From: Planctomycetota bacterium
GTDB lineage: Bacteria > Planctomycetota > UBA1135 > UBA2386
Length of the DNA stretch: 64,000 nt
NCBI GenBank assembly: GCA_965228735.1
Contig: OZ245838.1
Span: 5,248,001 to 5,312,000, forward strand
Direction of reading: 5' to 3'
Made by a program: the position numbers and the translations under genes. This document shows positions 37,532 to 40,567 of the stretch, in pieces. The notes below the pieces were generated by a model. That model made no database searches and was not told the DNA's origin. It saw only the letters and a program-made list of their open reading frames with translations. Positions within the stretch are counted from its first letter, which is position 1. Each line of letters starts with the position of its first letter.

Positions 37532-38059
37532 TCAGGTGCTCGGGAACGCGGCGCCACCGCGCGGCGGGTACTCGTTCTCGATGACCCAGTCGACCATGCC
37601 GAGCAGCGCCTTGGCCGGCGGCCGCGAGAACGGCATCGTCTGCACGATCGACGAGTAGAGCGTTCCGTCGGGCCGGACGAAGAACAGACCGGGCTCGTTG
37701 AACATCGGCGGCTCCTTGTCGTTCAGCGCAGCGGAGACGAAGAGCCCCCAGCGCTCGGCGTCCGCGAGCTCGAGTTCGAAGCCGACGGTGAGCCGGTCCA
37801 GGCCCCATTCCTCCACGGTGCGCTTCGCCAGTTCTTCCGAGTTCATGCTGACCGCGAACAACTCGATCCCGCGCTGCGTGAAATCGTCGACCATGCTGTT
37901 CAGCTCCACGAGCTGCTTCTTGCACAGTGGTCAATGGTGGCCGCGATACGCCACGATCAGCGTGAACGACCGGGGCCTCCGATCGGACAGGGTCCAGCGG
38001 CCTCCGCTGGTGGTCTTGGCGGACAGTTCGGGCGCCTTGGCGCCGGGTAGGGGTTTCAT
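37532..38059 (-). CDS. AhpC/TSA peroxiredoxin-like protein with in-frame UGA (probable selenocysteine, UxxC)
   Basis: MKPLPGAKAPELSAKT...LIVAYRGHH[TGA 37933-37931]PLCKKQL...FNEPGLFFVRPDGTLY...MPFSRP. The frame is continuous across the TGA, giving 175 aa with readthrough. Confidence 0.85.
37901..37915 (-). promoter_or_regulatory. Candidate bacterial SECIS hairpin
   Basis: mRNA CAGCUC-GUG-GAGCUG: 6-bp stem, with a loop that starts GU 21 nt after the UGA. Confidence 0.65.
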
Positions 38060-38272
38060 CGTTCGTTGCTCCATTGGGCCATATTCGGGGAAAGCACTCC
38101 CGCAGATGCGCGCGTGGGCGGAAGAGCACCCGATCTGATGTGGCCGCTGGGCCCTCCGGGCAGATCCTGTGCTTCGCGCATGTCCTGCTCGCCTGGCGAT
38201 CCGTCGGCAGATCAGTGCCGTTACCGCGATCGAGTTGCTAACGTGCTGCCGACGATGCAGGGTTCCGTTCCG

Positions 38273-39295
38273 ATGCCGCGACCACCGCGTGTGGGCCCAC
38301 GTCAGCGCGCGCGGCGGTGGTTCGACCGCATGATCAGCGGCGCTGGACTCAGCCGCATCGCGGCCGGCGTGCGGCCGCACGGAGGAGCGATCGTGCTGAT
38401 GTACCACAGCGTCTCGCCGCCCGATTCGCCGTGGATCGATCCTCGCTTTGCGGTCGCGCCGGCGGTCTTCGAGGCGCAGATCGACTACCTCGTGCGGTAT
38501 TGCAACGTCGTGAGCCTGGACGAACTCGTGATGCGCAACGCGGCGGGACAGTCGTTCGACGAGCGCACCGTCGCGATCACGTTCGACGACGGCTACCGCG
38601 ACAACCTCGATGTCGCGGCCCCGATCCTCGCGGCCAGGAACGTGCCGGCGACGTTCTATCTCGCGACCGGCTACGTCGACCGGGGTGAGCCGCAATGGGT
38701 GGATCGGCTGTATGCAATCTTCGGCACGCGATCGCGGCATGGACTCGACCTGACCGCGTTCGGGCTGACGCGTTGGGATCTCGCACGGCAGGGCGATGCC
38801 GACGACGCGCACTCACGGATCGCGCAGCGATTGCTCGTGGCGAGTTTCGAAGACCGCCAGCAGCTGCTCGAGGAACTCGCGAAGCAGCTCGAGCCAGAGG
38901 AGCCGGCGCCGCGGACCACCATGACGTGGGACGAGGTCGGCGAGCTCGCGCGGGATGAAGGGTTCACGATCGGATGCCACACTCGCAGTCATATCGACCT
39001 GACGAGCGTGTCCGGCGACGAGGCGCGCGCCGAGTGCGAGCGCAGCAAGGCAGACGTAGAACGTCACCTCGGAATCGAACCAGCGCACTTCTCGTATCCT
39101 TACGGCCGGTTCACCGCCGAGCTCGCCGAGACGGTGCGAGCGCTCGGTTTCACGACCGCTGCAACGACGACGGAGCAGACCCGGTTTCGCGACCCGATGA
39201 CCATCCCGCGCATCGACGCGACGGGTCACCTCTGGTCACTGCGGCACATCGCCGTTGGCGGCTACCACGCGCTTCGTCGCCGGCAAGCGCTCTGA
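38273..39295 (+). CDS. Polysaccharide deacetylase (NodB/CE4) family protein
   Basis: VLMYHSV, AITFDDGYRDN, HTRSH and FSYPYG. Start uncertain (38255, 38273 or 38330). Confidence 0.92.
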   Translation: MPRPPRVGPRQRARRWFDRMISGAGLSRIAAGVRPHGGAIVLMYHSVSPPDSPWIDPRFAVAPAVFEAQIDYLVRYCNVVSLDELVMRNAAGQSFDERTVAITFDDGYRDNLDVAAPILAARNVPATFYLATGYVDRGEPQWVDRLYAIFGTRSRHGLDLTAFGLTRWDLARQGDADDAHSRIAQRLLVASFEDRQQLLEELAKQLEPEEPAPRTTMTWDEVGELARDEGFTIGCHTRSHIDLTSVSGDEARAECERSKADVERHLGIEPAHFSYPYGRFTAELAETVRALGFTTAATTTEQTRFRDPMTIPRIDATGHLWSLRHIAVGGYHALRRRQAL

Positions 39296-39425: not shown

Positions 39426-40567
39426 TCAGAGCGCGAAGAACTCCACCATCTGCGCGACGCTCCGATAGCCGACTGCGCGGCGGATCTCCTTGCCGTCCGG
39501 GCCGAGCAGGATCAGCGTCGGGTAGGCCTTCACGCCTACTTCTCGACGAGGTCGCGGTGCTCGTCACCGTCGACCTTCGCGGCGATGACGCGCGCCTTCG
39601 TCGCTGCATCGACGACGTCGGCCGCGGTGTAGACGACCTGGTCCATCGCCTTGCACGGTCCGCACCACGTGGTCTCGAAGTCGAGGAACACCGGCTTCTT
39701 CTCACGCTTCCCCTGCGCCAGGATCGCGGCGTAGTCCGGGCCGTGCCGGAACGCGAGCGGGTGCTTGCTGCGCTTCGCCATCCGGTCCGCGCGCGTGCGG
39801 TCGTTCTTGGCCACCTCTTCGGCGCGGGTCATGCCCGGGTCGTGCGGCGCGATCGTGATCCGTTTGCCGTCGGGTGTGAACGACGTGATGCGGAACGCGC
39901 GCTCACCGCACCAGGCGTGGTTGGACACGGCGCGTCCGCGCGCAGTGAGGAGCTCCTGCCGCGTCGCGCCGATCTGCCAGCTGTCGTCGGTCGTGTAGAC
40001 GCCGTCCATCACACCTTCCGTCAGGAGCACGTGCACCGTCTCGCCATCGTGCTCGAACTCGCCCTCGTGCCAGCCGCGGCGCGACCAGCGCAGCGTCGGC
40101 TTCTGTTCCTTCGCCGCCGGGTCGAACACGAACCACAGCGCCATCGGGTACGGCTGATGCTCGTCGCCGGCGCCCGTCGGCACCTGCACGATGGCCGTGA
40201 AGCTCGACCAGAACTTCTTGCGGCGCTCGCGGGGCGTGGTCGTGAACAGCTCGCCTTTGCCGAACTCGCCGTCGCGATCACAGTCGATCTGCAATCGGTC
40301 GACGTGTTCGGAGTTCGGGCTGTAGGACAACGCGACGCGGACCGGCGGGGTGCCCGCCGGGCCGAGGTGGAACTCACCGATGAGACCGGCCGGCGCGGGG
40401 CGCACCGGTACCTTGGCGCCCTTCGGACTCCAGCGCAGGCTGCCGTCCGGGCTCGGCGCGGTCGGCGTGAGCGTGACCTCGACGTTGGATTCGACCTCGG
40501 GCTCGGGAGTCCGTGCGGGCGCGGGCTCCTGGCAGAGGGCGCCGACGAGCAGGCTGGAGAGCAGCAT
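39426..40567 (-). pseudogene. Secreted thioredoxin-domain protein (WCGPC) with a 1-bp frameshift near the C-terminus (mutation or sequencing error)
   Basis: KPVFLDFETTWCGPCKAM...LVEK, then AAG TA GGC GTG. Restoring one base gives YGVKAYPTLILLGPDGKEIRRAVGY...FFAL* ending at 39426. Confidence 0.85.

Follow-up and report, generated by a model that had tools for sequence, protein, structure and literature searches.

Prx-like thiol:disulfide oxidoreductases, which combine the PF00578 domain with a UxxC or UxxU motif, are a catalogued selenoprotein family (PMC13188914 Table 1; PMC9312934). In their treatment of this family both reviews define it by domain and motif, and the table of the former lists the accession cd02970. 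The GOS survey counts 225 sequences in a family called 'Prx-like 1' (PMC2398784). Canonical peroxiredoxins, including the Sec-Prx with a PxxxTxxU motif (PMC13188914), share their fold and Pfam family with the gene described here. Among planctomycetes, the Porphyra-associated P1 and P2 are described as having the full Sec machinery, as does the present genome, and their candidate peroxiredoxin and thioredoxin-like selenoproteins are likewise split by annotation (PMC4807772).

The gene studied here is found on the minus strand of the window (the whole analysed stretch of 64,000 nucleotides) at positions 37532..38059 and encodes a Prx-like protein of 175 amino acids with the AhpC/TSA fold (Pfam: PF00578). 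Its translation runs from the ATG at 38059 to the true stop codon TGA at 37534-37532, with a probable ribosome-binding site GGAG (38069..38072) 9 nt before the ATG. An in-frame ATG at 38074, five codons upstream, is a possible alternative start, and the closest homologs start with MK or MR, which agrees with the ATG at 38059. Between start and stop there is one internal TGA (37931..37933), in YRGHH*PLCKKQ (asterisk: TGA), so that the translation places it at codon 43, the first position of the UxxC motif U43-P-L-C46. Cys46 (TGC, 37922..37924) is the sole cysteine of the protein and the predicted resolving partner of Sec43. The ORFs 37931..38812 and 37532..37909, which the earlier note had described as sharing a frame interrupted by one TGA, are both on the minus strand and in this frame; a plus-strand reading of 37532..38059 gave no sensible protein. 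We estimate at about 95% the probability that the internal UGA of this intact Prx-fold gene is read as selenocysteine, in a protein that we predict to be a UxxC thiol-disulfide reductase. The proposal of a 175-residue Sec-containing redoxin is thereby upheld by a 175-codon PF00578 gene, a TGA at a Cys column, the Sec machinery of the genome and a conserved hairpin.

In the 88 homologous loci, column 43 is TGC in 58, TGT in 20, TGA in two (the window and L050) and a Ser codon in three, while one locus is misaligned and four do not cover the column. Three further homologs (L214, L215 and L216) have TGA in the same column. Identity to the protein encoded in the window is 54-63% for these three and L050, and selB is present in the three GTDB host genomes of L214, L215 and L216. 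The pairing of Cys and UGA expected at this column is therefore found, with Cys in 78 of the 88 loci and TGA in five genes, that of the window included, although the five TGA genes are mutually related and do not count as independent cases. A search of species genomes with this one protein as query added no TGA form and returned only two loci, both with Cys. The same column is TGA also in other Prx-like genes of relatives, namely L038 (FRGHW*MSC), L042 (YRGFW*RTC), L046 (FRGVW*LSC) and L047 (FRGRW*PYC).

If the TGA were a nonsense mutation or an assembly error, the gene would be a pseudogene. The patchy occurrence of the gene in the class fits such an origin, with matches in 5 of 339 genomes (the hosts of L214, L215 and L216 and genome G013 among them), and so does the copy in G013 (L022, G013:C1:4531993-4535331), which is decayed, has lost its 5' third and has a TGA in a column of Trp. 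What is left of it abuts the end of an HxlR gene and looks as if it came from an internal deletion of an HxlR-oxidoreductase-redoxin cassette; a TGA in such a Trp column, in a copy without its 5' part, is not counted here as evidence for Sec. Against a pseudogene in the window, TGA and hairpin recur in the four homologs and are retained in other assemblies. Contigs assembled from six of eight sequencing runs (X4, X5, X9, X11, X15 and X17) have both unchanged, where X4 and X5 are possibly the source DNA and the contigs of the remaining runs, X12 and X18, do not include the TGA position. Contigs from X4, X5, X9 and X11 are at least 99% alike, and those of X15 and X17 are more distant. Within the gene, 10 of 18 changes in X15 and 15 of 23 in X17 are silent, against 25% expected, although these two strains are related, share many of the changes and are not independent counts. 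The changes flanking the TGA on either side are mostly silent or conservative. Relatives lacking UGA here and a decaying downstream sequence had been named in the earlier note as signs against selenocysteine; instead, four homologs carry the UGA and the changes between strains are mostly silent. We regard the pseudogene explanation as largely refuted and very improbable, and keep to selenocysteine.

The predicted SECIS core, AAGCAGCUC-GUG-GAGCUG, covers codons 48-53 (KQLVEL) at 37901..37918 on the minus strand. Within it, the apical hairpin CAGCUC-GUG-GAGCUG (37915-37901, minus strand) was found at the position claimed for it, with its loop beginning 21 nt past the UGA, and forms the apical part of the whole stem-loop predicted from the UGA onwards (37888..37933, minus strand, -16.8 kcal/mol), whose lower stem is unconserved among the homologs. 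The folding energy of a 49-nt piece is not significant (z = -1.67), as 12 of 200 shuffled sequences fold as well, and it was rejected as proof of a SECIS element. Conservation is more informative. Over the hairpin, 18 nt are invariant in all five TGA genes; elsewhere in the gene no stretch of identity exceeds 6 nt. The hairpin codons are identical in six of six cases, compared to 12 of the 45 other codons for conserved residues, but the Fisher p of 0.001 for this difference overstates it because the five genes are kin. As the core is invariant, there is no compensatory change or covariation in it. The hairpin is conserved in the TGA forms only, and the description of it as SECIS-like is in our view justified.

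Published rules for bSECIS elements ask for a loop of 3-9 nt, a stem of 4-16 bp, a distance of 16-37 nt from the UGA, a G in the first two loop positions and an MFE of at most -7.5 (PMC13188914). With the loop GUG, 6 bp, 21 nt and -14.8 kcal/mol the hairpin agrees with them. As sole proof our loose version of these rules was rejected, since 23 of 78 Cys-coding homologs pass it too. A stricter pentaloop rule, derived from 39 motif-chosen seeds in the genome (loop N-G-[G/U]-N-N, at least five pairs), passes the target, 21 of the 39 seeds and 2 of the 78 Cys homologs, and on controls 97 of 5302 Cys codons, 30 of 2001 TGA ends and 22 of 1006 TAG/TAA ends (1.5-2.2%); its support for the target is partly circular because the target is among the seeds. 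By analogy with known bacterial systems, SelB with Sec-tRNA would deliver Sec at the UGA after binding the C-GUG-G hairpin, which lies 21 nt past it.

Residue 51, whose GTG codon forms the loop, is Val in all five TGA forms, whereas it is Gln in 14 and Glu in one of the 15 Cys-form members of the clade. One such Cys form is ANM30650.1 of Acidobacteria bacterium Mor1 (P0003), named 'alkyl hydroperoxide reductase', which has the same length, 64% identity and a YRGxHCPxC motif, but differs in having Cys at 43 and Gln at 51 in place of the loop-forming Val codon. Within the YRGHH clade a Cys form was likely the ancestor of the Sec form, and a Gln-to-Val change at residue 51, which would have created the GUG loop, likely accompanied the switch. 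The gene would then be a clear example of how a switch from Cys to Sec goes along with a single amino acid change that builds the SECIS element.

The genome has 7.19 Mb in one contig and is 93% complete with 2.3% contamination. In a profile search of it, selA (454 bits), selB (337 bits) and selD (367 bits) scored above the curated cut-offs, and tRNA-Sec scored 76.6 bits, above the Rfam gathering score (Rfam: RF01852), in agreement with ARAGORN. The selD gene itself holds a TGA, in GSG*AAK. The organism had been predicted to use selenocysteine, and the search for the sel genes bears this out with selA, selB, selC and selD all present. A planctomycete-like host had also been suggested: of two 16S probe sites, which we take to be planctomycete ones, one matches perfectly and the other with 1 mismatch, which fits the suggestion and is not proof of it. 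SelA is above its cut-off in all 41 genomes sampled from the order, 40 of which are the relatives G001-G040, and many PF00578 matches with one TGA are found across the relatives; Sec use thus looks lineage-wide. In the genome itself, 10 of 23 PF00578 matches have exactly one TGA and none has TAA or TAG.

A changed genetic code or leaky read-through could in principle place Trp, Gly or Cys at the UGA, and for this nothing speaks beyond the in-frame TGA itself. Of 2133 long training ORFs, 1452 end in TGA, as does the gene in question; TGA is the main stop codon of the genome, and therefore the code is not changed. A UCA anticodon is found in a single tRNA, called as tRNA-SeC, and the homologs have Cys in the column, not Trp. 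A reading as another residue is hardly credible on these data, and insertion of selenocysteine is the reading we follow below.

Public protein records break the gene, as the earlier note had expected of standard gene callers. One version (P0002) is a 120-aa downstream piece. The other (P0125, an NCBI record) has 163 aa and lacks exactly codons 36-47. The missing 36 nt (window positions 37919-37954) run from GT to AG and include the TGA and both active-site residues; a spurious intron was here probably called in bacterial DNA. The CxxC region is missing in 18 of 119 homologs, all of them inside the query's clade of 34 rows (97 SH-aLRT in a quick tree). DNA was examined only for the gene of one of these N-truncated proteins (P0062, L050), so we do not count the other 17 as Sec forms. 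For the gene alone, the consequence is a correction of the annotation, as the public records are without the active site.

The best Pfam match of the protein is PF00578 with 60.6 bits (cut-off 26). Among NCBIfam models none reached its cut-off and all Prx models scored far below theirs. The best match there, over the N-terminal half, was the SelL-related redox protein model NF040769 with 35.4 bits against a cut-off of 120 (E-value 7.6e-9); the homolog L214 has 49.6 bits, and both lie outside this family, of which a true member is present elsewhere in the genome (L160, 128.7 bits). The AlphaFold model, with Cys placed at position 43, has a pLDDT of 92.6 and a Prx fold at a TM score of 0.77, and all Foldseek matches listed for it are Prx-family structures (1-Cys Prx, AhpC2, Bcp) with TM scores of about 0.7-0.78. 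By sequence and in its domain and motif, the gene is predicted to be of the long-catalogued Prx-like UxxC selenoprotein kind. PF00578, UxxC and a coding-region SECIS just past the UGA are common to both, the described family being itself a predicted one, with WP_010940744.1 as its representative, and the placement follows domain and motif. Some homologs are named 'peroxiredoxin-like family protein'. The CDD model cd02970 is, we assume, PRX_like2.

The same selenoprotein might be mainly a peroxidase, in which the Sec43 selenolate would reduce hydroperoxides directly and Cys46 would resolve. The Foldseek and Pfam matches favour this, as do homologs called 'peroxiredoxin' or 'alkyl hydroperoxide reductase' in their source records. 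On the other side, identity to the Prx structures is 13-20% and the only PDB sequence matches are to the disulfide reductase ResA. Aligned with a true Prx of a relative (L029), U43 falls on the Thr of PxxxTxxC, Arg39 on the Pro and Pro123 on the catalytic Arg. Unlike canonical Prx, the protein thus has RGHHUPLC instead of PxxxT/SxxC(U) and a Pro in place of the catalytic Arg. Pro123 presumably sits where thioredoxins have their cis-Pro. In 101 full-length homologs, which were selected for having the motif, R39, G40, C43, P44, C46, E122, P123 and R146 are invariant. The earlier description of the gene as peroxiredoxin-like stands for the fold and fails for the Prx catalytic motif. We consider a mainly peroxidatic role, the chief alternative, doubtful.

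Since the Prx motif is missing, the protein is likely a UxxC thiol-disulfide reductase, and a cytoplasmic one by its sequence; no signal peptide was seen by eye in the 175-aa protein. In the chemistry we propose for it, the Sec43 selenolate would attack an oxidised substrate, Cys46 would resolve the Sec43 intermediate as a selenenyl-sulfide, and a cellular reductant would recycle the selenenyl-sulfide.

In three of the four other Sec copies (L050, L215 and L216) a Flavodoxin_2 oxidoreductase gene precedes the redoxin gene, and an HxlR regulator is encoded divergently. Apart from these and the HxlR end at the G013 remnant, HxlR/Flavodoxin_2 genes were absent at the 92 loci searched, 62 of which span at least 3 kb, and the window gene stands alone without this cassette. 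Cassettes of the HxlR/Flavodoxin_2 type answer quinone or electrophile stress. Given an HxlR-family regulator and a flavodoxin-fold oxidoreductase ahead of these three copies, the protein likely helps to protect the cell from quinone, electrophile or thiol-oxidising stress. The neighbours in the window, an amidohydrolase (convergent) and a polysaccharide deacetylase (divergent), were considered and gave no functional link, and the scan for promoters and terminators found 0 sites. A separate Thioredoxin_7 protein with WCGPC is encoded at 39536-40567 (minus strand) of the window; its frame ends shortly past the motif and it is possibly truncated or frameshifted.

Genome-wide, stops that have the strict hairpin and are flanked by coding sequence on either side numbered 28 for TGA, 0 for TAG and 0 for TAA. 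A looser rule gave 76, 38 and 6, so only the strict rule is clean. We hand-picked 60 candidates from the genome scans and dropped 15 of them as gene boundaries or unsupported (L140, L166, L183-L195). For 30 candidates, or 31 with the target, a Pfam or NCBIfam stretch spans the TGA. Eleven further candidates are in families with TGA in relatives, and for four (L151, L157, L165, L182) a motif or hairpin is the sole support. From these sequence data the genome likely has about 46 selenoprotein genes, 42 of them with outside support, in a survey that misses C-terminal and weakly scoring Sec sites. For P1, six putative antioxidant selenoproteins were described (PMC4807772). The candidates (L136-L182) include SelD, three Prx/BCP, five TlpA-like, two AhpD-like and two deiodinase-like proteins, MsrA, SelW-like, SelL-related, ArsC-like, Grx and rhodanese proteins, three HMA proteins and a VPGUxxT protein with two Sec. 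None of 5 molybdopterin-oxidoreductase matches holds a stop, and this query thus revealed no Sec formate dehydrogenase.

High selenoprotein counts in the literature are 46 (PMC12013277) as well as 57 and 63 (PMC13188914), and 78% of selenoprotein-rich species are given as anaerobes (PMC5029168). At least 46 genes would equal the highest count among the deep-Sep test genomes. Two strong COX1-family (haem-copper oxidase) matches were found in the genome, from which oxygen respiration is predicted. We think it fairly probable that the gene marks an overlooked Sec-rich lineage, probably oxygen-respiring, with at least 46 selenoprotein genes, order-wide Sec use and uncatalogued MetE-like, FG-GAP and GHPLGxT-U families. 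If true, this would run counter to the view of selenoprotein-rich bacteria as mostly anaerobes, and a large, mostly unannotated selenium-using lineage would be at hand in which to test whether oxygen limits selenoproteome size.

The MetE-like gene (L147, G000:C1:1762143, plus strand, Pfam: PF01717), named for its domain of cobalamin-independent methionine synthase, has its TGA in RRTFM*ATL. In 18 aligned loci, with the relatives L196-L213, the column is TGA in seven, Cys in nine and gapped in two, and the seven TGA forms have the near-invariant hairpin CCCGC-CGUGA(U/C)-GCGGG. In the class, the top 18 of 93 matches have one TGA, the column being unchecked for 11 of these. We consider it likely, from the alignments, that this is an uncatalogued selenoprotein family, and it is the most testable new lead because matched Sec and Cys forms exist.

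Three FG-GAP 'UC' genes with NW*CIGMSPQF are located at G000:C1:3065085 (plus strand, L154), 406817 (minus strand, L141) and 5872224 (minus strand, L176). For the one member tested, all 20 loci compared (L217-L236) have TGA in the same column, followed after 19 nt by an AGUU(C/G) hairpin, and none of the 20 is a Cys form. The TGA-to-TGA alignment of the other two genes is with paralogs only. Four paralogs with GHPLG(C/Q)T*(N/G)NG, here called GHPLGxTU, are found at G000:C1:4855623 (minus strand, L168), 3484699 (plus strand, L156), 6929513 (plus strand, L179) and 7087946 (minus strand, L180) and have no Pfam or NCBIfam match. All 28 matches in relatives have one TGA; in the 20 that were checked it always occupies the same column, and 17 of these have the hairpin.

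In the 2026 review PMC13188914, the 119-family table does not include GHPLGxTU, and neither that table nor the text consulted includes the MetE-like or FG-GAP families. Searched for these families and for planctomycete selenoproteomes, the mostly open-access literature, including PMC8318568, gave no description of such families in the parts consulted; Haft and Tolstoy 2025 or Deng et al. 2026 could list them.

Several further candidates have TGA in relatives, the column being unchecked in each case. L174 (G000:C1:5497385, plus strand, DIDGFA*SA) has one TGA in 24 of 26 matches, L170 (G000:C1:5150736, plus strand, FDWL*MCL) has TGA in 17 of 17, and L173 (G000:C1:5458926, plus strand, FG-GAP/ASPIC, ADC*SLFW) in 10 of 13. 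The small protein L136 (G000:C1:2372 and 2123, minus strand) has two TGA in two of five genomes and no match in three. An in-frame TAG is found at G000:C1:1942556 (minus strand) in YMSPEQV*GRR, a coding stretch that we take by its motif to be kinase-like. Dozens of paralogs have mostly Arg or Ala at this position, and the TAG is probably a nonsense change.
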